From NCBI GenBank assembly GCA_030583845.1, contig CP129478.1, positions 279,175 through 343,174 of the forward strand: 64,000 nucleotides of DNA. Reading direction: 5' to 3'. The notes beneath the pieces are model-generated. The model did no database searches. It was not told the origin of the DNA and saw only the letters and a program-made list of their open reading frames with translations. A program made the position numbers and the translations under genes. Of the stretch, positions 28,965 to 62,297 are shown one piece after another (position 1 is the first letter of the stretch; each line of letters starts with the position of its first letter). The stretch comes from Candidatus Dojkabacteria bacterium. GTDB taxonomy: Bacteria > Patescibacteriota > Dojkabacteria > SC72 > JAHDCA01.

Positions 28965-28975
28965 GAAAGCTCTAT

Positions 28976-30383: not shown

Positions 30384-30414
30384 GAAACGCCACGCCAAGT
30401 CGCACTTTGCAAGT
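30384..30414. repeat. 25-bp palindrome copy 2 (extended to 14-bp arms: CGCCAAGTCGCACTT TGC AAGTGCGACTTGGCG) between mreB stop and mreC start
   Basis: Seen directly. Confidence 0.9.
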
Positions 30415-30477
30415 GCGACTTGGCGAAGTCCGACTTCGTGAAGGCGGAGTTTGTGAAACGGTTTGTGCAACTTGCAA

Positions 30478-44826: not shown

Positions 44827-45486
44827 ATGATGGATTTCACACAGTGGGTTACAGACATTGGAATGACAGAGCAGATGCTACTTATGCTGCTCTATATTCC
44901 TGTGATCGTCACTCTTATTAACTTCACCAGGTATGTGGTTGGATTTAAGACTTTGGGAATCTATGCCCCAATGGTTCTAGCATATGCCTATATCTTCACC
45001 GGGATACGTTTCGGTTTACTTATCACCGCTGCGGTAATCGCTGGAACTCTCATCACCTACTCTATCTTCAAGAAGGTGAGAATGCACTATATCTCCAGAA
45101 TCTCTGTCAACTATATATTGGTAACCTTTTTCATTATCTTCGTGATTGCTTTTAATGAAATTTCGCCATTCCCCATCACTACTGAGAACCATAACGTTGC
45201 TACAATTCCACCACTTGGTGTGATCTTGATCGTAACTCTTTCTGACTTCTTCATTAAACAGTATGTTAAGAAGGACCTGGGTAGCTCACTTAGAGCTGTG
45301 GCCGAGACTGTAGTCATCGGTATTGCTGGCTGGGCACTCCTAAGACTCCCATTTCTACAGGTATTTATCCTAGATAACCTATGGCTGCAGCCGATCCTCT
45401 TAGGGGTAAATATTGCACTTGGTAAATATACAGGGGTAAGATTTAAAGAGCTCTTCAGATTTCAACGGGTTATTAAAGACGAGTAA
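44827..45486 (+). CDS. Seven-TM integral membrane protein (no catalytic motif), first gene of the ATP-grasp locus
   Basis: 219 aa with about seven hydrophobic helices. Its position immediately upstream of a RimK-like ATP-grasp mirrors the 7TM partner of RLAN-type amidoligase systems (family assignment unverified). Confidence 0.5.
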   Translation: MMDFTQWVTDIGMTEQMLLMLLYIPVIVTLINFTRYVVGFKTLGIYAPMVLAYAYIFTGIRFGLLITAAVIAGTLITYSIFKKVRMHYISRISVNYILVTFFIIFVIAFNEISPFPITTENHNVATIPPLGVILIVTLSDFFIKQYVKKDLGSSLRAVAETVVIGIAGWALLRLPFLQVFILDNLWLQPILLGVNIALGKYTGVRFKELFRFQRVIKDE

Positions 45487-45536
45487 GCGTCTAAAGCATA
45501 TTTAACCTTTTCACTTAATCATTTCCATCTACAAGC

Positions 45537-46997
45537 ATGATAGCCACAGCCATTTTTGGGCAGAAAGAAAAAGAGGTGTTGGGGATCAACAGGCGCAACC
45601 AGAACTATATCCGTGCCTTCAATCCCCCATCAGCTCGTGGTAAGGCCGACAACAAGCTCACGACCAAGAAGATTCTCAATCAGGTTGGCATCAAGACACC
45701 TGAACTGTACAAAGTAATCCGCAGCAAGCAGCAGCTCAAATTCTTCGACTGGAACTCATTGCCCAAGAGCTACGTCATCAAGCCAAACCGCGGCTCTCAA
45801 GGAAGCGGCATCATAGTCTTCTACGGCCAGAAGAAGAATAGCCTCGAATGGATCCGACCGAGCGGCCAGACCATGGATCCACACGAGATCTCCCTGCACA
45901 TGGAGAAGATTCTGGACGGCCGTCTATCTATGGGTAACCGCAAAGATATTGTGATAATAGAGGATAGAATTCGAACCCATAGTGAATTGAAGCGCTACTC
46001 ATACAAGGGTGTTCCCGACATTCGCCTCATCGTCTTCAACAGAGTGCCTATCATGGCCATGGTACGCCTGCCCACCCGTCGCTCCGACGGTAAAGCCAAC
46101 CTACACGCTGGTGCGATCTGTGCTGGTATCGACATAGCATCAGGCGTCACTACAAATGCAATGCACCTTCGCAAGCAGCCGCTGATTGAGGACACATATG
46201 AAGACCTCGAATTTACCCTAGACCAGAATCCTCCCCTACCCCTGAGAGGTATCAAGATCCCATTTTGGGAAGAGATCCTACAGATAGCAGTAAAATGCCA
46301 AGAGGTTAGCGGCCTAGGCTATCTAGGCGTCGACATCGTAATCGACCAAGAGCATGGCCCAATGGTGCTTGAGCTGAACGCACGTCCCGGGCTAGGCATC
46401 CAGACAGCAAACAAGACAGGTCTACGGGCTCGATTAGAGCGAGTCGCTGGGCTGCAAATCAAGAGCAATAAGCATGGAATCCGCGTGGCTAAGAGCCTAT
46501 TCGGTGGTGAGGTCGAGGAAGAGATCGAGGTGATCAGCGGTAAGCGGGTAGTCAATCTTGTAGAGAAGGTAAATGTATACCACTCCGAGCATGCAGACAA
46601 GAAGGAGCTGGTGAGTGCAATGTTGGACACAGGAATTACTACATCTCGAATCGACGAGGGGCTCGCCTCTCGGCTTGGTTTCACAGACGCTCTGAAAAGC
46701 TTTTCCGAGCATAAACCACCCCGTGAGTTCGGTAGTTTCACAGAAGCCCAACAGTACATAGATGCCCATGAGGAAGAGATTACCTCACACCCACAGATTT
46801 TACGTCTCGCTAAGATATCAGAAGATGGCAAAATCAATGTAAAGCCTGTTATTAGCCTTGAAATCAAGGTCGCAGGTGAAAGACGCGCGATGGACTTTGT
46901 TGTAAGCACTCAAAGTGATATGCTCTATCCAGTGCTGATCGGTCGCGCAGAGCTGAAGAGCTACCTGATAGACGCCAGCAAGACCTTCACACGCTAA
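45537..46997 (+). CDS. RimK-like ATP-grasp amidoligase with N-terminal INRRN region and C-terminal retropepsin-like (PF05618-type) peptidase domain
   Basis: N-terminal GINRRNQNYI (the motif of alpha-L-glutamate-ligase-related proteins). Central ATP-grasp elements (…IIEDRI…RLIVFNRVPIMAMVRLP…DGKANLHAGA…LGVDIVID…VLELNARPG). C-terminal …MDFVVSTQSDMLYPVLIGRAELKSYLIDASKTF matches the LLGRraL…VDps signature of the ATP-dependent-zinc-protease/retropepsin-like family. Confidence 0.6.
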   Translation: MIATAIFGQKEKEVLGINRRNQNYIRAFNPPSARGKADNKLTTKKILNQVGIKTPELYKVIRSKQQLKFFDWNSLPKSYVIKPNRGSQGSGIIVFYGQKKNSLEWIRPSGQTMDPHEISLHMEKILDGRLSMGNRKDIVIIEDRIRTHSELKRYSYKGVPDIRLIVFNRVPIMAMVRLPTRRSDGKANLHAGAICAGIDIASGVTTNAMHLRKQPLIEDTYEDLEFTLDQNPPLPLRGIKIPFWEEILQIAVKCQEVSGLGYLGVDIVIDQEHGPMVLELNARPGLGIQTANKTGLRARLERVAGLQIKSNKHGIRVAKSLFGGEVEEEIEVISGKRVVNLVEKVNVYHSEHADKKELVSAMLDTGITTSRIDEGLASRLGFTDALKSFSEHKPPREFGSFTEAQQYIDAHEEEITSHPQILRLAKISEDGKINVKPVISLEIKVAGERRAMDFVVSTQSDMLYPVLIGRAELKSYLIDASKTFTR

Positions 46998-47016
46998 CCT
47001 AACTCTTCATTTGAAT

Positions 47017-48006
47017 ATGAGCCAGTACAATATGGATCCCAAATATCTAGAGCAAGGCGGCAATGTCCACCTCGCTTACTATCTAGAAGCAGCCGACCAG
47101 CTTGGCATCAAATATGATGTCATCATCCGCTCGCTCACAGCCCGCATGGAGAAAGATGGGAAGATCTGGTTTATGATGAACGCCTCGGTTCCTATTAACG
47201 GCGAGCCCAGCTCTACACTATCCCGCATCAAGAGCTATACATACAAAGTTTTCCAGCACGCTGGTATCCCAGTGGCTGAGCAGGCTGAGTTATTCAGTGA
47301 GCAAGATGCATTAGGATTCTTCAACCAGTATAAGAATATCGTCATAAAGCCTGTCCGCAATATCGGAGGCACCGGCATCACTATCCTGCCACAAAGCGAA
47401 GATGAGGTGCGTCAGGCATATGTCCTCGCCCGCGACAAGAATATGGCAAGCACAAAGGTCGAGGCTTTGGCCGAACGATTCGCTATCGGCTCTAATTATA
47501 GACTGTTAGTACTTGGTGATGAGGTAATTGGTGCCGTACATAGAAGGCCAGCCCATGTCACAGGTGATGGAGTCTCGACAGTTGCACAGCTGGTCGAAGC
47601 AAAAAATGCAGCACGCAAGGCAGAGCTGATGAAACCGATCAAGCTTGATGCCCAGAGCATGCTGAAGCTGAGGTCCAACGGATTTACCGAGGGCTATGTG
47701 CCTCAAGCGGGCGAAGAGGTCGAGCTGAGATTCAACTCGAATCTCTCAACTGGAGGCACGACTGAGGAGTGCATGTCGAGAATTCACCCTAGCTATCTGG
47801 ATCTAGCCATACGCGCTACTAAGGAGCTCGGCTTAAAACTAGGCGGCGTAGATCTGATTGCCGAGGATGTGACCACTCCTGGTGCTGCTGCAGTTATTAA
47901 CGAGATAAACACAAATCCAGGGCTAAGGGTGCATTATAAGGTGGATAAGGGCGAGGTTGTGCCAGTTGCTACGAAGATTCTCTCCTACATAGTGGCCAAT
48001 ATATAG
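47017..48006 (+). CDS. Cyanophycin-synthetase-like ATP-grasp domain protein (short, 329 aa)
   Basis: …IVIKPVRNIGGTGITIL…NYRLLVLGDEVIGAVHRRPAHVTGDGVSTVAQLVEAKN…STGGT…GVDLI… resembles the CphA central ATP-grasp block. Confidence 0.6.
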   Translation: MSQYNMDPKYLEQGGNVHLAYYLEAADQLGIKYDVIIRSLTARMEKDGKIWFMMNASVPINGEPSSTLSRIKSYTYKVFQHAGIPVAEQAELFSEQDALGFFNQYKNIVIKPVRNIGGTGITILPQSEDEVRQAYVLARDKNMASTKVEALAERFAIGSNYRLLVLGDEVIGAVHRRPAHVTGDGVSTVAQLVEAKNAARKAELMKPIKLDAQSMLKLRSNGFTEGYVPQAGEEVELRFNSNLSTGGTTEECMSRIHPSYLDLAIRATKELGLKLGGVDLIAEDVTTPGAAAVINEINTNPGLRVHYKVDKGEVVPVATKILSYIVANI

Positions 48007-48028
48007 TTTGAGCTCACAGAAGGGATCC

Positions 48029-48223
48029 TTAGCGTACCCAGAGCTGCCACACTACTACTGAGCTGAGGACTGCAATAACTGCAATTAGCATGAACACAAG
48101 GTATGTATTTGCCCTCATAAGCCTTCGTGATTTAGCGAGCTGGAGCTTCTGGTTTACAGTGCTACCACTCTTCTTTGCAGTTGTAATCTTCATCTCTTTT
48201 GCCATATCGCCAGTATACCACAA
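48029..48223 (-). CDS. Small hypothetical tail-anchored membrane protein (doubtful)
   Basis: 64-aa ORF with a C-terminal hydrophobic helix YLVFMLIAVIAVLSSVVVWQLW. It overlaps the glyQS promoter region. Confidence 0.2.
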   Translation of the reverse strand: MWYTGDMAKEMKITTAKKSGSTVNQKLQLAKSRRLMRANTYLVFMLIAVIAVLSSVVVWQLWVR

Positions 48224-48226
48224 GCA

Positions 48227-48557
48227 AAAGCGAAATTTGCATTGCCTGCCTGCTTAGAGCTATAATACCAGCAGAAAGAGATCTTTGAAGCAAACACAGA
48301 GAGTCGACCCAAGGCATGAATTGCCGGATTTGAGAGGTTGGCGAGCTTACAAATTGGCACTCTTTTCGCTTGAGAAAGCAGCGTGATAAAAGAATATCGA
48401 GAGATTATCGCAGCTTATATGGCGCGGTAATAATGCGGGTGGAACCGCGGTAGTACATTTTTGAAATATACCGTCCCGCTAACTTATAGTCCATAGCCTC
48501 GGCGACGGAGTATAAGTTAGCGGGACGGTTTTTATTTATATATAATCATTTAAGAAT
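48227..48557 (+). promoter_or_regulatory. glyQS T-box riboswitch leader: promoter TTGCAT-18-TATAAT (48227-48256), AGAGA and GGC specifier region, T-box sequence AATGCGGGTGGAACCGCGG (48432-48450), terminator hairpin (48470-48529) plus U-tract (48530-48540)
   Basis: Seen directly: 17/19 match to the AAUUAGGGUGGNACCGCGG consensus, with UGGA (N=A, matching the tRNA-Gly discriminator U). Antiterminator pairing GCGGG/CCCGC and CGGUA/UACCG around a UGGAACC bulge. The terminator is a REP-family hairpin followed by TTTTTATTTAT immediately before the glyQS start. Confidence 0.7.
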
Positions 48558-48575
48558 ATGGAAAAAGAGAAAAGC

Positions 48576-49973
48576 ATGACAATAGAGACGCTTGCGGCAT
48601 TTGCAAAAAGGCGCGGCTTCGTATTTCAATCATCAGAGATCTATGGTGGATTTGCCGCTGTATACGACTACGCACATTACGGTGCGCTTATGCGCGAGAA
48701 TATCAAGCAGGCGTGGGTCAAAGAGATGATCCGCCGAGATGATGTGAAGCTTCTCGATTCAGCAGTATTTATGCACCCAACCACCTGGAAGGCCAGCGGA
48801 CATGTTGATTCATTCGCCGATCCTGAGATCGATTGCAAAAGCTGTAAGAACCGATTTAAAGCCGACCACCTCTTGGAGCCACTTGGATATACCGATGTCG
48901 ACCGCATGGAGATTTCAGAAGCAAACAAGATCGTAGAGCAGGTCAAAGCAGAAGGGAAATTGAAGTGTCCAGTATGCGGAGGCAAAGATCTCACAGATAT
49001 TAAGCGATTTGACCTGCTGGTTAAATCAAACTTAGGCTCCCCTACTTCAGAGCTTTCAGAAGAGAATGTTGTCTACCTACGAGGTGAGACCTGCCAAGGT
49101 ATCTATCTCAACTATAAGAATTACCTGCAGAATATGCGGGTGAAGGTTCCGTTTGGTATAGCTCAGGTTGGTAAAGCTTTCCGAAACGAGGTGGTCGCAC
49201 GACAGTACACTTTCCGTATGCGCGAATTTGAACAGTGCGAGATGCAATATTTCGTTCACCCAACTGACGAGCAGCCGAAATATGACTATTGGAAAAAGGA
49301 GCGAATGAGGTGGTGGAAAGAGGAGTTGGGCGTGCCTGCAGAGATGCTTAGATTTAAAGATCACGAAAAGCTTGCCCACTACGCGAAAGCAGCATGTGAT
49401 GTAGAGTACGACTTCAATGTACTTGGGAAATTTGCCGAGGTTGAGGGTATCCATCAGCGAGGTGATTGGGATCTCTCACAGCATCAGAAATTCTCAGGCG
49501 AGAATCTCGAGTATTTCGACCAGGATAAGAACGAAAAGTATATCCCACACATAGTAGAGACTTCGGGTGGACTCGACCGAATGTTCCTTGCCGTACTCGA
49601 TAGCGGCTATACAGAAGAGACGCTTGAAGATGGTAGCGAAAGAGTTGTGTTGAAGGTGAAGCCATCATTGGCACCAATAAAGGTGGCAGTATTCCCACTT
49701 ATCAAGAAGCCCGAGCTCACAAAATTGGCTAAAGATATCTATCAATACTTGCTTTCACAGCACATGGTCGAATATGATGAAACAGGATCAATCGGTAAGC
49801 GATATAGAAGACAGGATGAGATCGGTACACCTTTCTGCATCACTGTCGACTTCGAATCACTCGAGGACAACATGGTGACATTGCGCAACAGAGATACGCT
49901 AGAGCAGGAAAGGATCAAGATCGACGATATGCCACAGATTATTAACTCAAGGTTGTATCCGGAGAAGGCTTAA
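48576..49973 (+). CDS. glyQS: Glycyl-tRNA synthetase (single-chain alpha2 type)
   Basis: Class II motifs (…FRNE…, …GGLDR…) and N-terminal …FVFQSSEIYGG…. An alternative ATG lies at 48558. Confidence 0.9.
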   Translation: MTIETLAAFAKRRGFVFQSSEIYGGFAAVYDYAHYGALMRENIKQAWVKEMIRRDDVKLLDSAVFMHPTTWKASGHVDSFADPEIDCKSCKNRFKADHLLEPLGYTDVDRMEISEANKIVEQVKAEGKLKCPVCGGKDLTDIKRFDLLVKSNLGSPTSELSEENVVYLRGETCQGIYLNYKNYLQNMRVKVPFGIAQVGKAFRNEVVARQYTFRMREFEQCEMQYFVHPTDEQPKYDYWKKERMRWWKEELGVPAEMLRFKDHEKLAHYAKAACDVEYDFNVLGKFAEVEGIHQRGDWDLSQHQKFSGENLEYFDQDKNEKYIPHIVETSGGLDRMFLAVLDSGYTEETLEDGSERVVLKVKPSLAPIKVAVFPLIKKPELTKLAKDIYQYLLSQHMVEYDETGSIGKRYRRQDEIGTPFCITVDFESLEDNMVTLRNRDTLEQERIKIDDMPQIINSRLYPEKA

Positions 49974-50011
49974 AACCAGGGTAATTGTTAAATTTATTGC
50001 CAGCTGCCAAT

Positions 50012-51694
50012 ATGGAAATCAAAGTATTACAGGGTGTGAACTTTGAAGCACCGCACACGCTTATTAAGATCAGCCTAGATGGTGATGCTGGTAAAGTAAC
50101 TCCCCTACTCGACCTAGTTAAATCTTTCCACCATGTCTTGTTAAAGGAGTATGTGGTGGACGGCTCGACGGTGATATTGAATTCGAAGCTAACGCACTTG
50201 TGGAAGAGTTCAGCAGAGCATCTGAACAAACTATCTTTAGGCGAACTCTCACAAGAAGAGGTTGAAGAATACGTTATAGGATATACTATCAAGAATCAGA
50301 TCTACTCGATGTCGACACTGTTTATGCTGGAAGGCGCGATCGAGTTAGGTGAAGAAGTCACCCAGTCTCTCTTTAACGGCCCTGTATTCGATGACCCTTC
50401 TTATGAGAAGCCTGGTGGTGCATGGAATCGTGTCTATACGATCGGAGCCGGCTCGGCCGCAATGCTTACAAAATCAACTGGCTCTACTGGTGACCCGATC
50501 ATGGCTTTGAATATCCAGCGAGACAAGTGGGTAACCAACACATATGCCGATCGATTGAAGCTCCCTGTAGCCAAATGGGACTTACTTCGATCCGAAGAAG
50601 AGGTTGAGCGACTTTTTGAGGAGTATGAGAAGCCCGTGGTTATAAAACCGACAGGATTGGTAGGTGGCAATGGGGTCACCACCAATATTAATACTCTCGA
50701 GCAAGCTAAAAAGGCATACAATTATGCCTACGACATCGTCCATGAGAAAAACCGATCGGCGTGGCAGCAGAAGATTATGATCCAGCAGCAGGTCGCAGGT
50801 GAAGATTATCGACTACTGGTCGTTGGTGGAATCTTGGAGATTGCTACCAAGCGCATCCCAGCCTTTGTGACTGGCGATGGGAAATCCACTCTGGAGCAGT
50901 TGATCGAAGAGACAAACAGAGATCCACGCCGAGACATGCGCAACCCCGCCCATATCTTGAAGCCGATAGCTTTCGATGAGAAACTGGACGAGTATCTTGC
51001 TGAGCAGAATCTATCGCTCGACCATATCCCAGGTGAGGGTGAGAAGATCTTCGTGCGCAAGGTTGCAAGCATGAGCCAGGGTGGGATCACAGAAGATTTC
51101 ACAGATAAAGTACACCCACAGATTAAGTATCTTGCAGAATCAATGGCCAGCTCGATCCACGCACATGTGGTTGGCATCGACGTGATCTGCAAAGATATCT
51201 CGAAGCCTTTGACCGCAGACAACGGTAGCTTTATCGAGATGAACACAATGCCCGAAGCATACCTCAACACCTTCCCGGTGATCGGCAAGCAGTATCCCGA
51301 GACAGGTCAGGTAATCATTAAGCGACTGCTGGAGAAGATGAAGCCAGTAACCCGTATCGTGGCTATAGGGTTGGGATTACCAGAGCTGTTTGAGAAGTTG
51401 GAGAACGAGGGTGTGATTGTCGATGATGCAATTGTAGGTACAGTGTCGGGTGGTAGCATCTATATCGACAGCGAGATTATGCATGAGGATGTAGAGACCT
51501 GGGAGGCAGTAGAGGCACTCAAATTGAATGCCCTACCCTCGGTGCTAGTGCTGCACTATAAAGATGCTGACGAAGTTGAGGAAGTGGGACTTGGGTTTGA
51601 TAAGGTAGACTATCTAATCGCCAATGATGAGGTAAGTGAGAAGCTGAGTGGCGAGGGATATAAGAGTAAGGTGTTGAATTTCATTAAAATCTAA
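50012..51694 (+). CDS. Cyanophycin-synthetase-like ATP-grasp protein lacking the Mur-ligase half (561 aa), with about 120-aa unknown C-terminal region
   Basis: …VVIKPTGLVGGNGVTTNI…DYRLLVVGGILEIATKRIPAFVTGDGKSTLEQLIEETNRDPRR…SMSQGGITEDFTDKVHPQ…HVVGIDVICKDISKPL…FIEMNTMPEAY closely follows the CphA ATP-grasp block (…HRVLVV…AVAERVPAHVIG.GKSTI.ELIE.VN.DPRRG…). No MurE-like domain follows. Confidence 0.65.
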   Translation: MEIKVLQGVNFEAPHTLIKISLDGDAGKVTPLLDLVKSFHHVLLKEYVVDGSTVILNSKLTHLWKSSAEHLNKLSLGELSQEEVEEYVIGYTIKNQIYSMSTLFMLEGAIELGEEVTQSLFNGPVFDDPSYEKPGGAWNRVYTIGAGSAAMLTKSTGSTGDPIMALNIQRDKWVTNTYADRLKLPVAKWDLLRSEEEVERLFEEYEKPVVIKPTGLVGGNGVTTNINTLEQAKKAYNYAYDIVHEKNRSAWQQKIMIQQQVAGEDYRLLVVGGILEIATKRIPAFVTGDGKSTLEQLIEETNRDPRRDMRNPAHILKPIAFDEKLDEYLAEQNLSLDHIPGEGEKIFVRKVASMSQGGITEDFTDKVHPQIKYLAESMASSIHAHVVGIDVICKDISKPLTADNGSFIEMNTMPEAYLNTFPVIGKQYPETGQVIIKRLLEKMKPVTRIVAIGLGLPELFEKLENEGVIVDDAIVGTVSGGSIYIDSEIMHEDVETWEAVEALKLNALPSVLVLHYKDADEVEEVGLGFDKVDYLIANDEVSEKLSGEGYKSKVLNFIKI

Positions 51695-51701
51695 GGATGT
51701 A

Positions 51702-52661
51702 ATGCAGATGCGATACCTATACATAGAAAAGCCCCAAAGAGTCAAAATGTCCGGTGAATACCCGAAGCGTGCTATACGCATAATGGAGGAGCTTGAGAAG
51801 GCCGGTCTTCCTTATGATTTCGCATACAACGATCAGATATCAATTTCATTAAATAAAAGCGAGCTCCAGATTAAAGTTAATGGAAAAGATGTTAGAGAGT
51901 ACACACATATTATCTTTGGTGGTCACCACCTCCATAGCCAACGAGATTACGAGATAAAGAGACTGATCGTCGACGTTGTCGATGAGCATAACCAGGATAG
52001 CGGTAACTCAGAGCCCATAAGAGTTCAGAACTCTCGATTCATTAAACGAATGACATTCTACTCAAAGCTGCACATGGCAAAGATCTGCGCAGACTATGGC
52101 CTACCGTTCCTCGCAACATATTACGACCGCTCGGGTAAGTATCAGCAGTCCAACCTACCCTTCCCCTACCCTCTGATTGCAAAACATGTCGATGGTCGCA
52201 ATGATCTGGTGATGATCGACGGTGAGAAGAAAGTTAAAAAGAATGTATACAAGCTTGATAATGAGAACGGTTGGAAGCAGGACAGGCTGGCCACCAAGAG
52301 CCCAGCGCTCTTCTTCATACAGGAATTCGCCGACTCAGGAGAAGATTTCCGATATTTTGTATCCAAGGGCGAAGTGATAGGAGGCTGGAAGCGTGTCGCG
52401 GGCGACAGCTTTATGACCGTGAACCGCAAAGAGGGTGCCAGATATTTCTATGCCAACGAGCCAGACAAGAAGATTCGAGATATCTGTAAAGCCGCCGCGG
52501 ATGGCTGGGGAGTCGACTTTATGGCATTGGACTTCATGTATAAGGATGGTGAGCCTCACATTTTGGAGTTCAGCATGAACCCTGGCTTCGATGCCTATGA
52601 GAAGAAGTGCGAAGATGGCGAGCCAACAAATATCGCCGAGGCGATCGTTAAATCTTTTTAA
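51702..52661 (+). CDS. RimK-like ATP-grasp ligase (alpha-L-glutamate ligase family)
   Basis: …FFIQEFADSGEDFRYFVSKGEVIGGWKRV…MALDFMYKDGEPHILEFSMNPGF… parallels RimK (…DIRCFVVGD.VVAAMKR…EVNSSPGL). Confidence 0.6.
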   Translation: MQMRYLYIEKPQRVKMSGEYPKRAIRIMEELEKAGLPYDFAYNDQISISLNKSELQIKVNGKDVREYTHIIFGGHHLHSQRDYEIKRLIVDVVDEHNQDSGNSEPIRVQNSRFIKRMTFYSKLHMAKICADYGLPFLATYYDRSGKYQQSNLPFPYPLIAKHVDGRNDLVMIDGEKKVKKNVYKLDNENGWKQDRLATKSPALFFIQEFADSGEDFRYFVSKGEVIGGWKRVAGDSFMTVNRKEGARYFYANEPDKKIRDICKAAADGWGVDFMALDFMYKDGEPHILEFSMNPGFDAYEKKCEDGEPTNIAEAIVKSF

Positions 52662-52709
52662 TGAAATTCAGATAAGCCTGCGAGGTGTCTAGGTGACTAC
52701 AGGATGCGA

Positions 52710-53870
52710 TTATAGCCCTGCTACCTTGAAAGCATCATCAAACATCTTCTTGCTGTAAACAAGCTTTGGCTTAGGGATGAGCCCTTCATCCACCCACTTT
52801 ATCTGGCTAAATCCGATCTTGCCAGCATATAGCTTCTCATAGATTGTAGGATCCTTCTCTACTTTATTCCTGACCCTTCTAAAGCCTTTAAAGTAGTTAT
52901 AGTCCCGCGAGTATATACCCGGCATATTTGTATCCCCTAGCCCACGCTTGACTCGATATACGATGTGGAATGCCTCGATCCTAGGAGCAAAAGCCTGTGT
53001 AGCATTATAAAGCTCACGGAACGACATCTGCTCACCAACCCGGATAGCCCACACCTTGACTGCTCGGCCTACCAGATCTTTCTTCTTCAATACGCCAACC
53101 ATCTCCTCATTATATGTAGCTAATCCCTCCTCTGCCTCAAGATATGAAGGGAGGTTTGAATTTGCCAAGGCAGGCACTTTAGTCTGCTCTCCATTATAGG
53201 CCCTGGCTATATGCGTGAATTCATGCACAATTGTCTTCCGTAGATCTACGGCACTCTTCTCAATCTCTGGATCCATCAATATCTCCTTCTTCTTGATACC
53301 AACCTTCACCCCGTTCTTGTCGATGTTCTTTGACTTGCCTGCTTTCCAATCACTCAGTCCAAGCTCCTCAAGGACGATTGCCATAGTTTCTGCAATCTCT
53401 TCGTACCTCAGCTTTCTCTCAACTTTCTTACTCCCCTCATCCATCAGTTTGTAATTTTTCACCTTGCCCCGTAGCACTCTTGTGGCATTCCTAAAAAGGA
53501 TATCGCCAGGCATTCCAAATCTCTCCTGCGAGAGTCTTGTGAATCTAAAATTCTGGCCGACTGAATGTAGAAGCTCATTGAGCTGGTGCTTCGAATCGAT
53601 CAGTTCTAGGTAGAATTCTGAAATTCGAGGATCTACATCGGTGACAACTTTTACACTACTCAGCTTTGCTAAGATGTCGGCATTTTTATTTTTTACAACT
53701 GTATAAGTGAAAAGCGGGTTGTAGCTGCTGGACTCAAAGAATCTCTTGCGCTCTTCTTTTAGGTTGGTTGGGGTGAACACTAGGGATGTAGGGGCGCGGA
53801 ATTCTTGCAGCAGCTCTGTTAGTTCCTTGAGCTTAATTTCGCTCTTTCCTTTTTTGGCGAATATCGTCAT
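52710..53870 (-). CDS. DUF1704 / QEGLA-motif zincin-like protein
   Basis: HExxH IVHEFTHI and EEGLATY (QEGLA-like) motifs. The ORF's first 23 codons (to 53939) run through the 25-bp palindrome, so the ATG at 53870 is preferred. Confidence 0.5.
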   Translation of the reverse strand: MTIFAKKGKSEIKLKELTELLQEFRAPTSLVFTPTNLKEERKRFFESSSYNPLFTYTVVKNKNADILAKLSSVKVVTDVDPRISEFYLELIDSKHQLNELLHSVGQNFRFTRLSQERFGMPGDILFRNATRVLRGKVKNYKLMDEGSKKVERKLRYEEIAETMAIVLEELGLSDWKAGKSKNIDKNGVKVGIKKKEILMDPEIEKSAVDLRKTIVHEFTHIARAYNGEQTKVPALANSNLPSYLEAEEGLATYNEEMVGVLKKKDLVGRAVKVWAIRVGEQMSFRELYNATQAFAPRIEAFHIVYRVKRGLGDTNMPGIYSRDYNYFKGFRRVRNKVEKDPTIYEKLYAGKIGFSQIKWVDEGLIPKPKLVYSKKMFDDAFKVAGL

Positions 53871-53920
53871 ATGGTTACCATATTCAATCTTACCGCCGAT
53901 TCTAACAGAAATATTAGCCT

Positions 53921-53945
53921 TAACCAAGGGAAGTCGCACTTTGCA
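53921..53945. repeat. 25-bp palindrome copy 3 between the mreB-paralogue stop and the DUF1704 gene start
   Basis: Seen directly. Confidence 0.9.
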
Positions 53946-53971
53946 AGTGCGACTTGGTTCGCGCTTCGCGC

Positions 53972-54982
53972 TTATTCTTTCGCGATGCTAGTCACGCCTG
54001 CTGCGAGCAGCTCCAAGGCTGCACCAGTACCCTTTGCCACACAGTACATCGGCTCATCAGCAACGTATGCAGGCACGCCGGTCGCCTTCGTGAATAGCTT
54101 GTCCAGATTCCGAAGCATTGCTGTACCCCCACTCATCGCCATGCCACGATCAATAATATCGGCCGATAGTTCAGGCGGTGTCTTTTCTAACACAGACTTG
54201 ATAGCCTGAATAATTTGCGCCAGCGGCACTCGCAAAGCCTCTGCGACCTCATTCGAATTTATCTCCATCGAGCGAGGCATTCCGCCTGCTGCATCACGAC
54301 CACGAATCTCCATCGATTGTGGATTCTCCACCTTCATCGCTGAGCCAATCTTAATCTTGATCATCTCGGCTGTTTGCTCACCAACCAGCAACCCATGTCG
54401 CTTACGCAGGTATGACACAATAGCATCATTAAGCGCATCTCCTGCGACACGCAAGGATGAGTACTCTACAATTCCACGGAGCGAGATCACGGCAATTTCA
54501 GAGGTACCACCACCCATATTTACGATCATGCTTCCGGTCGAGGTCTCAATTGGCAAGCCGGCGCCAATCGCTGCGAGCAACGGCTCGGGCACCAGATAGA
54601 TCTTACGGGCTCCAGCAGCCGTAGCCGCCTTGAGCACAGCACGCTTCTCTACAGAGGTGATTCCGGCAGGCACGCTAATCATCACATCCGGTTTGAAAAA
54701 TCGAGAAGGACCTCCAAGTGCTTTGTTGAAGAAATACTTAAGCAGAGCTTCGGTCACGCGTGAGTCTGCAATAACACCGCTTCGCATTGGCCTGCGAGCT
54801 ACGATGTCATCGGGAGTCTTGCCGATCATCTCCTTTGCCTCCATCCCTACGGCTAGGACCGACATATTGTTTACATCAAGGGCGACAACTGTGGGCTCTG
54901 TTAGCACCACACCCTTGCCCTCGAGAAATACTATTGAATTGGCTGTTCCTAGGTCGATGCCTAGCTTCTTTCCTCCTATCAT
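53972..54982 (-). CDS. MreB/Mbl-like actin homologue (second copy)
   Basis: LGIDLGTANSIVF…, NMGGGTSE… actin-fold motifs. About 50% identical by eye to the mreB at 30478..31527. Confidence 0.8.
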   Translation of the reverse strand: MIGGKKLGIDLGTANSIVFLEGKGVVLTEPTVVALDVNNMSVLAVGMEAKEMIGKTPDDIVARRPMRSGVIADSRVTEALLKYFFNKALGGPSRFFKPDVMISVPAGITSVEKRAVLKAATAAGARKIYLVPEPLLAAIGAGLPIETSTGSMIVNMGGGTSEIAVISLRGIVEYSSLRVAGDALNDAIVSYLRKRHGLLVGEQTAEMIKIKIGSAMKVENPQSMEIRGRDAAGGMPRSMEINSNEVAEALRVPLAQIIQAIKSVLEKTPPELSADIIDRGMAMSGGTAMLRNLDKLFTKATGVPAYVADEPMYCVAKGTGAALELLAAGVTSIAKE

Positions 54983-55122
54983 TGGTCTGATTATACTTGT
55001 GGGCTGGTAAATTTCAAAGCTTATGGGCTCAATTAATTAATGAATCGGCAATATTAAGCGGCCGGGCGACTTCATGAAAGCTGCTTATAGTAATTTCCCT
55101 CGCTATTCGCTATTATGAATTC

Positions 55123-56004
55123 ATGAAAGCACTCTTCTATTTTCATGAAAATAGCCGAAAGGCACCTTGGCAGCCTGCTGAAGACAGGTCTATGATCGAC
55201 CTTGAGAATAACTTGCTCGCACTAGCCGACGGCGCTACCAGAAACATCGTCAAAGAGAAGCACAACTACCCTAAAGATTTCTATGCGGCTGCAACTGCTG
55301 AGCTATTCGTGAAAAGCGCTCAGGAGCTACAGGAGCAGTTTGATTTCGCAAGTGGTGAAATGGATGACATGCTTCATGAAATTAATAAGAGAATATATGA
55401 AAACAACCAGACTCTAGGCTTCGATTATGAGAAGCTGGAACAGTATTGGAAGCCAGAATGCGTAGGTGCTGTTGTAAAAGTAGTTGAGGGGGTCCTCTAC
55501 TACGGCGTGATGGAGGATGTCTATCTGAATGTGCTTCGTGGCGAGGAGCTATCCGACCAGGTTAATATGAGCTACACATTGATGAAGGCATTTCAATATG
55601 CCCAGCACGAGAAGGAGAAAGATCCTACTCTAGACTTCGAGAAATTTTGGTGCACCAAGCTGCGCAACAACCCCGATGCGAAAGACGCCGAGGGCAATAA
55701 AACTGGATGGGGCTCATTTAACGGCGAGCAAGGCGCGTCGGCTTTCTGGCAAACAGGCAAAGTAGAGCTAAAGCCAGGCGATATTATCCTGCTACTGACC
55801 GATGGTGCACTGGATCTGTTTAATGATTCTCCGTTTAATAAGCAAGCTGAGGAGATCATCTTCAAGAGCGGAGTCACTGAAGGGGTGAAAAGCCAAGAAG
55901 AGCTATCTGGCCTAATTACCCAGATGGTTAATGCTGGCAACGAAAGGCTGCTCAAAGAGAAAAGCATCATCCGCACTCTTTGGAATCTGCCACCTATTGG
56001 CTAG
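55123..56004 (+). CDS. Hypothetical protein, possibly a divergent PP2C-like fold
   Basis: Weak resemblance only: …LLALADGATRN… and …GDIILLLTDGALDLFND… echo PP2C motifs (ADGMGG, GDrlLLcSDGL.D). Confidence 0.3.
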   Translation: MKALFYFHENSRKAPWQPAEDRSMIDLENNLLALADGATRNIVKEKHNYPKDFYAAATAELFVKSAQELQEQFDFASGEMDDMLHEINKRIYENNQTLGFDYEKLEQYWKPECVGAVVKVVEGVLYYGVMEDVYLNVLRGEELSDQVNMSYTLMKAFQYAQHEKEKDPTLDFEKFWCTKLRNNPDAKDAEGNKTGWGSFNGEQGASAFWQTGKVELKPGDIILLLTDGALDLFNDSPFNKQAEEIIFKSGVTEGVKSQEELSGLITQMVNAGNERLLKEKSIIRTLWNLPPIG

Positions 56005-56041
56005 CTCCCAATCATCTACCTGACCCACGTCAGACACTTCA

Positions 56042-57025
56042 TTAGATCTTCATTGCATCCATCACTCGTCCTATAACATCATCTGCAACCTTATTTGCAC
56101 TTTTCTCACCCTCCTCTAATAGCTCAACTATATACTTGTCTCCAAGCTTATCTACCTCAGCCCTCTTCTCTCGTACAGGCTGAAGCATCTTCTCAATTGC
56201 TGCGTATAGTTTCTCCTTCACCTCTACATCGCCTACAGTTCCCTTAACATATCTTTCTTTCAGATCGTTAATTTCATCTTTATCTTCATTAAAGTAGTCA
56301 TGATAGATGAACACAGGATTACCCTCTACGCGACCAGGGTCGGTAGCACGGATTCGGTTAGGATCTGTATACATGCCCATTACTTTCTTACGCACATCTT
56401 CTGGCGAGTCACTAAAGAAGATTCCACCCGTCGATTTCCCTGCCTTCCCTTGTCCATCCAGTCCTACCAGTATCTCCCCTATCAAACCTGCAGGAACTTT
56501 CAAAGCCTTTCCATAAGTCTTATTAAATTTGTTCGCCAAGTCGCGTGTGATCTCAATATGCGCCTCCTGATCCTTACCAACTGGGACTACGTCGGAATCT
56601 ACAATCAATATATCGGATGCCATCAGAACTGGATATCCCAAAAGACCATATGTTAGGTCATGCCCACCCTGCAGCTTCTCCTTCAGTGCAGGCTGCCTCT
56701 CGAGCTCAACCATTGGAGTCAGCATAGAGAGAATTAGATGCAATCTAAATGTCTGAGCCAACCTAGACTGCCTGTAGAACGTAACTTTCTCCGGGTCCAT
56801 TCCGAGGCTGATCTGCGTCTTTATCAAATCGATCGCGTTTTGATGAATTATATCGGCCTGATTATAATGAGTAGTCAAGGTATGATAGTCTGCAGAGAAG
56901 ATAAAGGTATCGTACTCATCTTGCCTTGCGATTCTGTTTTTGAGCGTGCCAATATAAGCACCGATTACATATGAATTTCCAGATGCCCTATCCCCTGTCA
57001 GTAGCCTTTTCTTTTTTTCCATCAC
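56042..57025 (-). CDS. trpS: Tryptophanyl-tRNA synthetase
   Basis: Class I HIGH-region …SGNSYVIGAY… and KMSKS-variant …GQGKAGKSTGG…, size 327 aa. Confidence 0.9.
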   Translation of the reverse strand: MMEKKKRLLTGDRASGNSYVIGAYIGTLKNRIARQDEYDTFIFSADYHTLTTHYNQADIIHQNAIDLIKTQISLGMDPEKVTFYRQSRLAQTFRLHLILSMLTPMVELERQPALKEKLQGGHDLTYGLLGYPVLMASDILIVDSDVVPVGKDQEAHIEITRDLANKFNKTYGKALKVPAGLIGEILVGLDGQGKAGKSTGGIFFSDSPEDVRKKVMGMYTDPNRIRATDPGRVEGNPVFIYHDYFNEDKDEINDLKERYVKGTVGDVEVKEKLYAAIEKMLQPVREKRAEVDKLGDKYIVELLEEGEKSANKVADDVIGRVMDAMKI

Positions 57026-57413
57026 TTTTCTTCATTAAATTTAATCTATCTTACTTGGGGACCTCGTTTACAGCCTAAGCCATAAAACAAAAATCCCCGA
57101 ACAAGAATGAACCAAAATTCACTCTTGCCCGGGGACGTTACTCACGTGTTGCCACCCCTTCTTTGCGAGTACATCGCTGCACCCACCTTGTCGACTGACT
57201 TCCGGTGTAGAAACTAACTTCCACCACTTATCTCATCAGTCCGAATCTATTACGTGATTCGCTACGTCGCACATACTCAATCATGCCTTCGTGTGACAGA
57301 CCTTTCTGATTGCTGCTCCCTGGCCCATTCTCCAGATCACGGCATTTCATACCTTCGCAAAATCATTTACAAGGGTATGATTACATTATACTACAGCCTT
57401 ATTGATTTGTTAA
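57026..57413 (-). promoter_or_regulatory. trpS T-box riboswitch leader: promoter TTAACA-17-TATAAT (plus coordinates 57385-57413), candidate T-box GGGGUGGCAACACG with UGGC bulge (57146-57166), terminator hairpin (57096-57135) plus U-tract (57085-57095)
   Basis: Minus-strand RNA: …AAGAAGGGGUGGCAACACGUGAGUAACGUCCCCGGGCAAGAGUGAAUUUUGGUUCAUUCUUGUUCGGGGAUUUUUGUUUU…. Antiterminator architecture A1 GGGG/CCCC, 7-nt bulge UGGCAAC (UGGC complementary to the G-CCA end of the tRNA-Trp found in this window), A2 ACGU(GAGUA)ACGU. A strong terminator lies about 30 nt upstream of the start. Several UGG triplets are candidate specifiers. Confidence 0.55.
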
Positions 57414-57437
57414 TTGCACTCTGATATCTTCAGATTG

Positions 57438-59072
57438 ATGAAAAAGCAATTCAGAACGAAAATCCTTCCGGTCATTACAAGCATATTCGGAGCGCTAATA
57501 ATTATATCGGGTACTCTTATTGTCTTCCTCTACGCTAACGGCTATAGATTTAATAGAGAGGAAGGGACACTAGACAAGACTGGTGTCATAAGTATAAGTG
57601 CAAGCCCATATAGAAGTGAGATCTATCTCGATGGCAAACCAATCGGTAGGACCCCGAAGACGGTCTCCTCCCTTAAAGCAGGTGTCCACACAGTGAGGAT
57701 TACCAATGATGGGTTCCATGATTGGTACAAAGAGGTTGATGTAAAAGTTGAAAAGTCTACACCTATCAGTGCCATTCTTTTGAGGTCTGAGCTCAAAGCA
57801 GAAGAGGTATTTAAGGTCGACGATGAGATAGTAAATGTGAGCCATGACCAGCTGTACAACTATGTCTTCATCACCACCAAGAAAGAGCTGACCACCTCAC
57901 CCACACCAACAGCTCCATTGGCTCAAGATCAGGCACTCTATAAAATATGGCGGTACAACATAAATCCTAATTTTTGGGAGCTAGCCCAGAACCCAGTGCT
58001 CATCTACGAAGAGGAGATAGCAGCAGTAGAGGAATTTGAATTGCTCGTATCACCAAACGGCCAGAAGGCGCTCCTGACGCTAACCACACCTGTCGCCGGC
58101 CCAGAAGAGCAAACCAAAGCCTACTCACTGCTCAACACTGGCAGCAAGAATGATACCCCGACCCCATTAAATCTCGAGGCCTTTACGGAGGGCTACGAGA
58201 TCGAATGGGCAATGGACAGTCAGTTCCTTATGCTTCAATCTGACACCGAGCTGGTCACCCTTAACACCAGAGACGAGACCAAGTACATCATCCGCAGAGA
58301 CAATCTACCAGCCGCATGGAGCACCAACACCGACGGCCATCTATACCTAATTGATGAGGTTAGCGAGGCAGCTGAGGACGAGCAGGTTCAGCAATCGAAA
58401 TTTCAGATCGCAAGATCAAGCATGGAAGGAAATGACAGCACTGTCTTTATCGATGATATTTTCACTCTGCCTGAGTCGGAGATATTGGTAGAGCAGTTCC
58501 AGGATCCTGTCACCAAGAGTGAGCTACAGACACCATTTGAGGTTAGTGAAGTTGGAGATAAATTGGCAGGAGATATTACTGGGATCTTAGAGATGGAGGA
58601 TTTCCCTGGCTTTGTTATATTCACCACTCTTTCGACCTATTTCTATGACCCTGAGGATAACAGGTACACGCTCATGCTACCGGAAGCTGCTACAGTTGTC
58701 GGCTCAGACAGTGGCAACACCGAGCTAGGACTTTATGGGACTACCGTTACAGCAGTCTATACATATGATAAGGAGGAAGCGGACCATACGGTAGAGATCG
58801 GCACACTGGTGCTAACTCACCATTCTGAGGGATCAAAGAATGAGCAATTCAGATGGGTCCCTTCGACAGATTATCTTTCAACATTGGTCGACAGTAGCCT
58901 CTATGTGATCGATGATGAGGGTGATAATTATCTAAAGATTCTTGATGATAAGGCAGCTCTAGATTTCTACATGATAAACAGATCAGGCGAATACTTATAT
59001 ACATTCGCTCCTGAATCTGACAGCGAGGGCGAATCAGGCAGCTACAGCCTAGTACGTTACGAGCTAAGATAA
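57438..59072 (+). CDS. PEGA domain-containing membrane protein
   Basis: N-terminal TM ILPVITSIFGALIIISGTLIVFLY, then a PEGA-like segment …SASPYRSEIYLDGKPIGRTPKTV…GVHTVRITNDGFHDWYKEVDVKV. The rest is unassigned. Confidence 0.55.
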   Translation: MKKQFRTKILPVITSIFGALIIISGTLIVFLYANGYRFNREEGTLDKTGVISISASPYRSEIYLDGKPIGRTPKTVSSLKAGVHTVRITNDGFHDWYKEVDVKVEKSTPISAILLRSELKAEEVFKVDDEIVNVSHDQLYNYVFITTKKELTTSPTPTAPLAQDQALYKIWRYNINPNFWELAQNPVLIYEEEIAAVEEFELLVSPNGQKALLTLTTPVAGPEEQTKAYSLLNTGSKNDTPTPLNLEAFTEGYEIEWAMDSQFLMLQSDTELVTLNTRDETKYIIRRDNLPAAWSTNTDGHLYLIDEVSEAAEDEQVQQSKFQIARSSMEGNDSTVFIDDIFTLPESEILVEQFQDPVTKSELQTPFEVSEVGDKLAGDITGILEMEDFPGFVIFTTLSTYFYDPEDNRYTLMLPEAATVVGSDSGNTELGLYGTTVTAVYTYDKEEADHTVEIGTLVLTHHSEGSKNEQFRWVPSTDYLSTLVDSSLYVIDDEGDNYLKILDDKAALDFYMINRSGEYLYTFAPESDSEGESGSYSLVRYELR

Positions 59073-59150
59073 GGCCACGATTGGGTATTTACCATCTGCT
59101 CACTCCTCATTGGGGAAATCATTAGCTCACGCATTCCAACCCTACTAAAT

Positions 59151-59224
59151 CGCACCCGACCGGAATCGAACCAGTAACCTACTCGTTAGGAGTGAGTTGC
59201 TCTATCCAATTGAGCTACGGGTGC
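59151..59224 (-). tRNA. tRNA-Arg (anticodon CCT), no encoded CCA
   Basis: Reverse complement GCACCCGTAGCTCAATTGGATAGAGCAACTCACTCCTAACGAGTAGGTTACTGGTTCGATTCCGGTCGGGTGCG. One mismatch at the base of the anticodon stem. Confidence 0.7.
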
Positions 59225-59389
59225 AAATTGCTTACGGAGACAATTGTATCTTAAATAGTGTCGCTTGAAAACCTCTCATAACTGCGAGTGAAACAGTGTC
59301 GAAATCAAGTGAAACATTGAAATTTTGCGATGGAGGCCAGGTTCACAATAATTACCCGAATACTGAGAATTCCGCTCTATGAGAGGCTT

Positions 59390-60205: not shown

Positions 60206-60313
60206 ATTTTATAAGGTATGTGCTCGTAATTATACGCAAATAGAACACAAATGGAACCCCGACAATACCATACGGTTAAGAGAGATTCCAGTTGTATCTA
60301 AGAGATTAATTAG

Positions 60314-62071: not shown

Positions 62072-62297
62072 ATCTTATAAGCTCAAATTATATTTACTAG
62101 TTCAGCTATTCTATAAAATTTTACCCCTAACGGGGTGGCATCAACTGCCATGTGGGATTCTTGAAGCAATAAGAGTCGGAGGATTGTAAAAACAAACCTA
62201 AGTTATCTGTGAACGATTTTTCTGTCTTCCACGATGAAATATCCATCTCAAAACAATTCTATCACCTTTATTCATAAATTCTACCCCTGATACCGAG

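Follow-up and report, generated by a model that had tools for sequence, protein, structure and literature searches.

A conserved Dojkabacteria gene cassette encoding four ATP-grasp ligases, two peptidase types and an RloB-like membrane protein: a probable system for building and trimming an acidic poly-amino-acid

The cassette and its conservation in Dojkabacteria

The window analysed here is a stretch of 64,000 nucleotides (contig CP129478.1, positions 279,175 to 343,174) from the genome, ~1 Mb in size, of an uncultured Candidatus Dojkabacteria bacterium (WS6; candidate phyla radiation (CPR)/Patescibacteria). Between positions 44827 and 53870 of the window, the open reading frame (ORF) list and profile searches delineate eight closely packed genes, which secE-nusG-rplKAJL adjoin on the upstream side. 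Six of these genes make up the cassette that is the subject of this report (Table 1), namely those for a seven-transmembrane (7TM) protein, for four ATP-grasp ligases that we term G1 to G4, and for a zinc metallopeptidase of the MATCAP/DUF1704 family, whose gene is convergent with that of G4; the glycyl-tRNA synthetase genes glyQS and their T-box leader, situated between G2 and G3, are not counted in it. An initial annotation made from the sequence alone had predicted this gene content, together with a retropepsin-like domain at the C-terminus of the first ligase, directly after rplKAJL. Each of its ORFs lies where it had been drawn, the profile searches matched the predicted content, and the placement after rplKAJL holds. 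It had also raised the possibility that the ATP-grasps might be ordinary housekeeping enzymes. In our profile and structure searches none of the models for Ddl, PurK/PurT, PurD, CarB and GshB came near its cut-off for any cassette ligase, and those for Ddl, PurK/PurT, CarB and GshB fell far below those for CphA, RimK and RloC; hence this description of the sequence is correct.

Table 1. Positions of the cassette genes and of other features in the window
Feature	Coordinates	Strand	Remarks
Canonical mreB-mreC-(162-aa ORF, possibly mreD)-PBP2 operon	27012-31527	-	
1929-aa ORF	34896-40685	-	sole precomputed Pfam match Response_reg
7TM membrane protein	44827-45486	+	219 aa; PF14402 7TM_transglut E 6e-17
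G1 ligase-retropepsin	45537-46997	+	486 aa; PF14397/TIGR02291 "alpha-L-glutamate ligase-like" ATP-grasp and C-terminal PF05618/RloA-like domain
G2 stand-alone CphA G-domain-type ligase	47011-48006	+	331 aa; PRK14016 1e-58 over CphA positions 210-471
58-aa ORF	48029-48205	-	one hydrophobic transmembrane helix; between G2 and T-box
Divergent glycine T-box leader and intrinsic terminator	48276-48535	+	part of glyQS insertion, outside the system
glyQS, dimeric-type GlyRS	48558-49973	+	NF003211 E 2.5e-177
G3 CphA2-like three-domain ligase	49985/50012-51694	+	569/560 aa; N, ATP-grasp G and truncated inactive M domain
G4 divergent RimK/LysX-family ATP-grasp ligase	51702-52661	+	319 aa; PF08443 1.8e-5
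MATCAP/DUF1704-family zinc metallopeptidase	52710-53870	-	386 aa; PF08014 E 2e-26, 93 bits (cut-off 27)
mreB2, second MreB paralogue	53972-54982	-	PF06723 2e-131; directly upstream of MATCAP gene
Trp/Tyr-type tRNA-ligase gene	56042-57025		
Second sub-threshold T-box	57128-57349	-	28.9 bits (gathering 93); upstream of Trp/Tyr-type tRNA-ligase gene
PEGA-domain protein	57414-59072		

A scan of one genome per species yielded 302 relatives, and the best 80 of these 302 provided the loci analysed here. They are labelled Dojkabacteria, Saccharibacteria, Patescibacteria-group or unassigned bacterium; from their G1 identity of 53-67% and common gene order we take all 80 to be Dojkabacteria. When the window proteins were placed on these loci by tblastn, the 7TM gene was found immediately 5' of G1 in 71 of 71 loci. 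In 44 of the 45 loci with at least 7 kb of downstream sequence, G2, G3, G4 and the convergent MATCAP gene were all present and colinear, which answers the other doubt voiced in the initial annotation, that synteny might be absent from relatives. The median gaps between cassette genes are 13-78 bp. The orthologues are 38-67% identical to the window proteins, pointing to deep conservation and not to recent common ancestry. The 45th locus (L067) was considered as a genome without the G2-MATCAP part and rejected as such: a 7-kb insertion of two genes, each for a protein of ~1200 amino acids (aa), follows G1, a G2-like gene comes next, and then the sequence ends. On the upstream side rplKAJL precedes the cassette in 51 of 53 loci, with a gap of more than 500 bp between rplL and the cassette in 18 of the 51 genomes; in the single locus inspected (L010) this gap holds further ORFs. 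On the other side, mreB2 follows the MATCAP gene in 43 of 45 loci.

Some Dojkabacteria cassettes carry extra genes (L007, 12519-13496, 15173-17391 and 19621-20877; L010, 14192-16424). These include a C45/NTN-hydrolase (PF03417) between G2 and G3, and a GT4 glycosyltransferase between G3 and G4, beside which lies an ORF with an alpha/beta hydrolase match in L010 and no Pfam match in L007. A Wzy_C O-antigen-ligase-like protein is encoded between MATCAP and MreB in some Dojkabacteria. Such insertions are sporadic, gaps exceeding 500 bp in just 4-8 of 44 loci per junction.

Domain architectures, active sites and fused relatives

The first two cassette genes correspond to a known system, rloABC, described in Pseudomonas aeruginosa and other Gammaproteobacteria (Lormand et al. 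2025, PMC12239564). Its RloA is a retropepsin that is secreted and cuts runs of at least eight glutamates; RloB joins an inactive transglutaminase to 7 transmembrane helices; and RloC is a cytoplasmic ATP-grasp enzyme. When the three RloA paralogues are lost, phenotypes appear that concern osmotic behaviour, shape, biofilms and antibiotics, and rloB or rloC mutations suppress them; the system plays a part in hypo-osmotic stress tolerance, and rlo mutants of Pseudomonas have cell-shape and beta-lactam phenotypes (PMC12239564). We confirmed the correspondence by alignment with the canonical rloA-rloB-rloC set on a Legionella adelaidensis plasmid. The triad is said to have been predicted earlier, by Iyer, Abhiman, Burroughs & Aravind in 2009.

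By the positive-inside rule the cassette 7TM protein has ~7 transmembrane helices in an N-out/C-in orientation. It aligns with the NCBIfam RloB model at positions 310-508 only (58 bits versus a cut-off of 900) and is 23% identical to residues 309-505 of the Legionella RloB; the 7TM half alone is present and the RloB-type inactive transglutaminase domain is absent. A basic cytoplasmic loop, R85-M-H-Y-x-x-R91-x-x-x-N95-Y96, is conserved.

In G1 a helical linker joins an RloC-type (RimK-related) ATP-grasp domain (aa 1-~305) to a retropepsin-like aspartic peptidase domain (aa ~335-486) that contains a two-helix insertion and has no signal peptide. This bears out the fusion proposed in the initial annotation, the ligase being of the RloC type: it scores 232 bits with PF14397 (cut-off 31), 282 bits with TIGR02291, slightly below the equivalog cut-off of 314, and 67.7 bits with the RimK model TIGR00768, below its cut-off of 143.4. 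Residues 10-322 share 40% identity with the Legionella RloC, and the tail aligns with the C-terminal half of the Legionella RloA. In the peptidase domain D364 and T365 are at least 95% and G366 at least 90% conserved among the 80 orthologues. The ligase domain is strongly basic throughout, with a net charge of +15.8 +/- 2.8 across orthologues.

The next two ligases had been called cyanophycin-synthetase-like, and cyanophycin synthetase G domains are indeed their best matches. We mapped their residues onto the substrate-bound Trichodesmium CphA1 structure, taking residue roles from PMC9427784. G2 (2.6e-35 against CphA1 in the PDB) is a lone G domain with no N and no M domain. Among 72 orthologues the equivalents of K220, K261, R309, R323, N394, D431, E450, N452, G456 and R458 are invariant, the S396 position is S or T, and E215 and H267 are not retained; the CphA1 aspartate-recognition residues (N394, S/T396, G456, R458) are accordingly kept. 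G3, whose true start is probably M10 (50012), as in the NCBI record, has the CphA2 architecture of N, G and truncated inactive M domains, which is that of a dedicated polymerase. For its AlphaFold2 (AF2) model (pLDDT 92.5) Foldseek ranks CphA2 (7ta5) first, with an alignment that spans the whole protein (TM 0.71/0.69), and CphA1 structures next; among cultured organisms it is most closely related to genuine cphA genes, at 27-29% identity, and it scores 228 bits with cya_phycin_syn against a cut-off of 850. Like G2, it retains the residues for ATP, Mg2+ and the acyl-phosphate (K220, K261, R309, R323, D431, E450, N452). In the acceptor pocket, however, N394->S, G456->E and R458->Y are invariant among 62 orthologues and the E215 position is variable, and judged from these substitutions the pocket is remodelled relative to cyanophycin synthetase 2. 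We did not find the HxxEH primer-generating motif on reading the sequence of the G3 N domain, and its C-terminal M remnant, of 120 aa, has no P-loop. As E215 and D212, which hold the cyanophycin arginine side chain, are conserved in neither G2 nor G3, and no active arginine-adding M domain is present anywhere in the locus, the product is not cyanophycin.

G4 was thought to be RimK-like. Its single-sequence match is weak (E 1.8e-5), as is its score with TIGR00768 (39.4 bits, cut-off 143.4), but its profile supports a RimK/LysX affinity, with PDB matches to RimK at 5.5e-7 and LysX at 5e-6; these two enzymes are the closest solved structures to both G1 and G4 despite the sub-cut-off scores with the curated RimK model (TIGR00768/NF007764). 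K161, D277 and E289 of G4 are invariant. Catalytic residues are kept in all four ATP-grasps across 56-80 orthologues, with the exception of E-x-S for E-x-N in G4, and all four look catalytically competent and chemically unlike each other.

The MATCAP protein fits the DUF1704/QEGLA zincin-like assignment of the initial annotation, matching, besides PF08014, TIGR02421 (E 1e-30, 107 bits, below the equivalog cut-off of 338.65) and human MATCAP (7z5g, 4e-9). Eukaryotic MATCAP/TMCP enzymes strip C-terminal Tyr and Glu from acidic tails (PMC10499314), and we predict the cassette protein to be a C-terminal trimming peptidase. The EEGLA motif is invariant in its orthologues, which are strongly basic (net charge +16.2 +/- 4.0, n=51). 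The consistently very basic character of both this protein and the G1 ligase domain fits a polyanionic substrate.

We then looked at the family beyond Dojkabacteria. A HMMER search with G1 of 1.84 billion representative proteins gave 403 matches at E <= 1e-30, of which selected ones were scanned with Pfam. About 41 of the best 150 representatives are ligase-MATCAP fusions of 750-820 aa, an architecture confirmed in 12 of 12 sampled. Other proteins join ligase, retropepsin and MATCAP (P0249), ligase, retropepsin and a second ATP-grasp (P0265), the 7TM module and the ligase (P0352, P0372 and a Halobacterium sp. DL1 plasmid protein), or a transglutaminase core, 7TM and ligase (P0380), and one fusion adds a YdjC-like (carbohydrate deacetylase) domain (P0246). 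The 7TM fusions place the ligase at the cytoplasmic C-terminus of the membrane protein. Gene order tells a similar story: a 7TM gene precedes the triple fusion, in which ligase, retropepsin and MATCAP make up one 916-aa protein, in L092, a PKD-7TM gene precedes a ligase-MATCAP gene in L087, and a 7TM gene is followed by a G1-like gene and another ATP-grasp gene in L091, or by genes for a 926-aa fusion, a RimK-like protein, a DUF3541 protein and a further ATP-grasp in L088/L089. Other CPR clusters, too, thus have extra ATP-grasp ligases beside the core, one of them distantly G4-like. The named members with fused or minimal versions are Patescibacteria-group and Peregrinibacteria metagenome-assembled genomes, with one Peregrinibacteria record in the P0273 cluster. 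Together the 7TM-ligase, ligase-MATCAP and ligase-retropepsin-MATCAP fusions indicate that the four modules form one functional unit that recurs in CPR. The occurrence of both peptidase classes beside an RloC-like ligase, which the initial annotation had counted as part of an undescribed arrangement, is accordingly a trait of the family and not a peculiarity of this locus, since in metagenomic CPR relatives the ligase shares a single polypeptide with MATCAP, alone or together with retropepsin.

Three further observations concern these relatives. The ~170-aa interdomain stretch of the ligase-MATCAP fusions (L087, 4990-7377) aligns with G1 306-439 and gives no PF05618 match by Pfam; it may be a degenerate retropepsin remnant. 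The DUF3541 protein encoded between two RimK-like ligase genes (L088, 10844-11779, and L089, 10970-11905, both on the minus strand) may be a further partner. On a plasmid of Vibrio sp. HDW18 (L084, 7056-9047) a 663-aa fusion of N-formylglutamate amidohydrolase (FGase) and MATCAP has no ATP-grasp neighbour.

Proposed function and competing explanations

We consider it probable that the cassette is an expanded and compacted relative of the system of 7TM protein, RloC-type ligase and trimming peptidase, and that it serves the membrane-associated building and trimming of an acidic oligo- or poly-amino-acid. A pathway of this kind had been suggested in the initial annotation and is still the best reading. 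Starting from the observed gene content, architectures, folds, catalytic residues, class-wide synteny and fusion links of the core, we infer the substrate, product chemistry, order of steps and export as follows. All five enzymes would be cytoplasmic, and G1 would dock to the 7TM protein from the cytoplasmic side. CphA G domains and RimK lengthen a chain by phosphorylating its C-terminal carboxylate; likewise the G1 ligase domain would extend an acidic chain, most likely of alpha-linked glutamate, through ATP activation of the C-terminal carboxylate. G2 with its aspartate pocket, G3 with a CphA2-like scaffold and changed acceptor pocket, and the RimK/LysX-like G4 would add more residues, so that the product might be a hetero-oligomer or polymer and not plain poly-glutamate, to which G1 and G4 would contribute Glu, G2 Asp and G3 something else. 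The retropepsin domain of G1 would cut the chain internally, and the MATCAP-like peptidase would trim its C-terminus, that is, the end lengthened by the ligases; jointly the two peptidases could set chain length or recycle the product, which the 7TM protein may anchor at the envelope or pass there. The Pseudomonas genetics fit an RloB/RloC product that would be harmful unless trimmed by RloA.

Several observations weigh against this interpretation. The lysine of the K-x-D motif, which contacts poly-Glu in RloA, is not conserved in G1, and the Mg2+ motif of G4 departs from the usual E-x-N. The zinc motif of the window MATCAP protein reads HEF-TH, with one residue lost relative to the HE[VI]G[TA]H seen in 50 of 51 orthologues; same-species assemblies are 100% identical in MATCAP over the portion that each covers. 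The window copy thus appears atypical and may differ in behaviour, although the HExxH spacing recurs in the triple-fusion protein P0249 and the enzyme may therefore still work. The link of G2, G3 and G4 to the core is synteny within one class whose gene order is generally conserved, rplKAJL, mreB2 and the tRNA-ligase gene being likewise syntenic, and CphA-type ligases were found in none of the other-lineage contexts examined (L087, L088/L089, L091, L092). Finally, as the terminator of the T-box before glyQS separates G3/G4 from G1/G2, their co-expression is not guaranteed in the window lineage.

Among the alternatives, the one that survives best, though we think it improbable, is that the ligases attach amino acids to a specific protein, at its C-terminus or on acidic side chains, and the peptidases remove them, as RimK/RimB do on ribosomal protein S6 and TTL/TTLL against MATCAP on tubulin. 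The enzymes closest to G1 and G4, RimK and LysX/ArgX, act on protein C-termini, the characterised MATCAP-family enzymes act on protein tails, and G1 and MATCAP are as basic as would be expected of acidic-tail binders. By position the MreB paralogue or a ribosomal protein would be a candidate target: in 43 of 45 genomes mreB2 directly precedes the MATCAP gene on their shared strand, and it is separate from the canonical mreB-mreC-PBP2 operon, and the cassette comes after rplKAJL in 51 of 53 loci. However, the C-termini of MreB2 vary (RR, IT, KE, N and others), and as the tails of 43 orthologues have no conserved acceptor residue we rejected MreB2 as the modified protein, retaining it as a low-probability rival only. 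S6 was set aside, there being no rpsF in the window or related loci, and with rplL more than 500 bp away in 18 of 51 genomes the linkage to the ribosomal genes is loose. Furthermore, the only known products of CphA-type ligases, the type of G2 and G3, are free polymers or small molecules, a target on the ribosome or the cytoskeleton does not sit easily with a dedicated 7TM partner, which some organisms fuse to the ligase, and the one proteobacterial MATCAP homologue examined, that of Vibrio, is fused to the small-molecule amidase FGase.

Two other explanations appear to us still less likely, and about equally so. The first is a cytoplasmic reserve, a cyanophycin-like storage poly-amino-acid that buffers an auxotrophic episymbiont, with the peptidases as depolymerases. 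It would account for the full CphA2 architecture of G3 and its affinity to true cphA genes, for the aspartate pocket of G2, and for the clustering of synthetase and peptidase genes, which recalls the cphA/cphB clusters of other bacteria. Against it stand the changed acceptor residues of G3 and the features that speak against cyanophycin itself, namely the loss of conserved E215/D212 and of an active M domain; it also leaves unexplained the 7TM partner and the minimal systems having an RloC-like ligase only. The second is a cell-envelope conjugate, in which a short peptide would be built on a carboxylate-bearing envelope precursor, either the stem or cross-bridge of peptidoglycan or, as in teichuronopeptide, a sugar acid belonging to a surface glycopolymer, and passed across the membrane by the 7TM protein. 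PF14397 is named as a "sugar-transfer associated" ATP-grasp family; GT4, Wzy_C and C45/NTN-hydrolase genes occur inside some Dojkabacteria cassettes; one relative's ligase is fused to a YdjC-like domain; the Pseudomonas rlo mutants show cell-shape and beta-lactam phenotypes; and an MreB paralogue is a conserved neighbour. Yet the accessory sugar genes are sporadic, the models for Ddl and other cell-wall ligases lie far below those for CphA and RimK, and no lipid-carrier or nucleotide-sugar enzyme is constant in the cassette.

It is very improbable that only the 7TM/G1/MATCAP core is a system and that G2, G3 and G4 are unrelated genes held beside it by frozen gene order, for although flanking rplKAJL, mreB2 and the tRNA-ligase gene are syntenic to a similar degree and CphA-type ligases are missing from the core versions examined in other lineages, chance is very unlikely to have lined up four consecutive ATP-grasp amino-acid ligases in a ~1 Mb genome, they share a strand with median gaps of 13-78 bp, and other CPR cores also recruit extra ATP-grasp ligases, including the distantly G4-like one; for the core modules themselves coincidental synteny is unlikely.

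Returning to the synthesis and trimming of an acidic chain at the membrane, a more daring version can be formulated, which we regard as possible though speculative. Dojkabacteria and, in simpler form, other CPR might make a new non-ribosomal hetero-poly(amino acid) by means of four ATP-grasps, among them a CphA2-like polymerase with a non-aspartate pocket, with two peptidases setting its length and an RloB-like 7TM protein handing it to the envelope. If this is true, the ligase-MATCAP fusions would mark a prokaryotic writer-eraser pair of ligase and carboxypeptidase that is older than the TTL(L)/MATCAP cycle on eukaryotic tubulin tails. Irrespective of the product, that a ~1-Mb genome keeps ~7.5 kb for four ligases and two peptidases class-wide suggests that the product is important, and it could be a new biopolymer. 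In Pseudomonas the Rlo system influences tolerance to antibiotics, the formation of biofilms and cell shape. The cassette and its fused relatives also place new constraints on the biochemical function of Rlo: the conserved core is a 7TM protein, an RloC-like ligase and a chain-trimming peptidase, which may be a retropepsin, a MATCAP-type carboxypeptidase or both, and the transglutaminase domain and the secretion of the protease are dispensable.

Flanking features and comparison with known systems

The initial annotation had described the locus as wrapped around a T-box-regulated glyQS between the second and third ATP-grasp. Its position and identity are correct, but the arrangement has no functional sense. 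GlyRS occupies this position in the window species and its closest relative (L033) only, out of 80 species loci, and the other loci have a G2-G3 spacing of ~40 bp; it is therefore an insertion and not part of the system, and glyQS was rejected as a pathway member, being absent from this position in 78 of 80. The insert consists of a minus-strand ORF of 58 aa, a leader RNA and glyQS. The small ORF, which is annotated as a gene in contig L001 of the same species, is probably not part of the system either.

The leader scores 30.1 bits with the Rfam T-box model RF00230 (gathering 93) and gives no match in gathering mode; the T-box call nevertheless finds support in its sequence: the specifier is GGC-A, the T-box motif AAUGCGGGUGGAACCGCGG bears a UGGA bulge, and the terminator spans 19 bp. 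Read by eye, GGGUGGAACCGCG contains the UGGA bulge, and the 5' arm of the terminator overlaps the 3' arm of the antiterminator, as in mutually exclusive structures. Bacterial tRNA-Gly typically has U73, and the UGGA bulge would pair with a U73-CCA tRNA end. A matching sub-threshold T-box with the same features precedes glyQS in L033. The second T-box of the window has GGGGUGGCAACACG, a UGGC bulge, a UGG-UGG specifier region and a terminator, and from these elements probably senses tRNA-Trp. In view of these two cases the glyQS T-box is probably real but divergent, and Dojkabacteria leaders seem to score too low with the Rfam model. As the G3-G4 pair starts 38 bp past glyQS, it may be read through from the T-box-controlled transcript in the window lineage.

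Beyond the MATCAP gene, the presence of the canonical mreB operon elsewhere in the window identifies the MreB gene beside the cassette as a second paralogue. Both MreB paralogues are conserved across Dojkabacteria; mreB2 is a conserved neighbour of the cassette that may or may not belong to the system. Other observations in the window include the presence of four aminoacyl-tRNA ligase genes within 16 kb (48558-63941), for GlyRS, a Trp/Tyr-type class I enzyme, ProRS with an editing domain and ArgRS, the PEGA-domain protein, and the 1929-aa ORF directly upstream of secE-nusG.

As to precedent, the claim of the initial annotation that such an arrangement had not been described stands in part. The components and the triad of 7TM protein, ligase and retropepsin are already known, as rloB/rloC/rloA and, for ligase-retropepsin hybrids, as the published RimBK. 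The Dojkabacteria-specific additions are the three extra ligases, that is, the CphA-G-type enzymes and the extra RimK-like one. In the searchable literature we found no description of the class-wide six-gene cassette, of a CphA2-like ligase with a non-aspartate pocket or of the abundant CPR ligase-MATCAP fusions, and searches on DUF1704, on MATCAP in bacteria and on Dojkabacteria ATP-grasp or cyanophycin enzymes returned nothing on this cassette.

Compared with rloABC, the cassette likewise encodes together an RloC-type ATP-grasp (PF14397/TIGR02291), a PF14402 7TM protein and a PF05618 retropepsin-like peptidase. It differs in that the 7TM protein has no periplasmic inactive transglutaminase domain, and in that the peptidase lacks a signal peptide and is appended C-terminally to the cytoplasmic ligase, whereas RloA is secreted and encoded by a separate gene; moreover, it adds a MATCAP-like peptidase and three ligases, and its host belongs to the CPR. 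The fused and minimal versions in CPR and archaea share with it a 7TM gene followed by an RloC-like ligase with retropepsin and/or MATCAP, but Dojkabacteria encode MATCAP on its own, in a convergent gene. RimB cuts poly-alpha-glutamate and also modulates the ligase, and RimBK proteins are hybrids of the two (Little et al. 2025, PMC11957791). As in these systems, a ligase of the RimK lineage is here paired or fused with a cytoplasmic retropepsin-like protease; however, the order is ligase-protease in G1 and protease-ligase in RimBK, G1 is of the RloC type and not RimK proper (TIGR00768 67.7 versus 143.4) and has a 7TM partner, and we found nothing pointing to S6 as its target.

With regard to cyanophycin synthetases, G3 has the N, G and truncated M domains of CphA2 and G2 is a stand-alone G domain, both keeping the ATP, Mg2+ and acyl-phosphate residues. 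Against this, identity is 21-23%, NCBIfam scores are 186-237 bits versus cut-offs of 850-877, the arginine-binding residue is lost in both, and G3 has S/E/Y at N394/G456/R458; in addition, unlike CphA1, the locus has no arginine-adding M domain and G3 no HxxEH. The MATCAP-like peptidase shares PF08014, the metal-binding His-Glu motif, (E/Q)EGLA and a basic surface with MATCAP/TMCP and QEGLA proteins. It is ~24% identical to the Vibrio QEGLA protein, which differs in being FGase-fused and standing alone, and it departs from the family in that its substrate cannot be tubulin and in the HExxH spacing of the window copy in place of HExxxH. In its pairing with an ATP-grasp ligase it resembles the eukaryotic MATCAP, which opposes TTL/TTLL, and in this respect the ligase-MATCAP fusions bear on the origin of the eukaryotic tubulin-tail carboxypeptidase.

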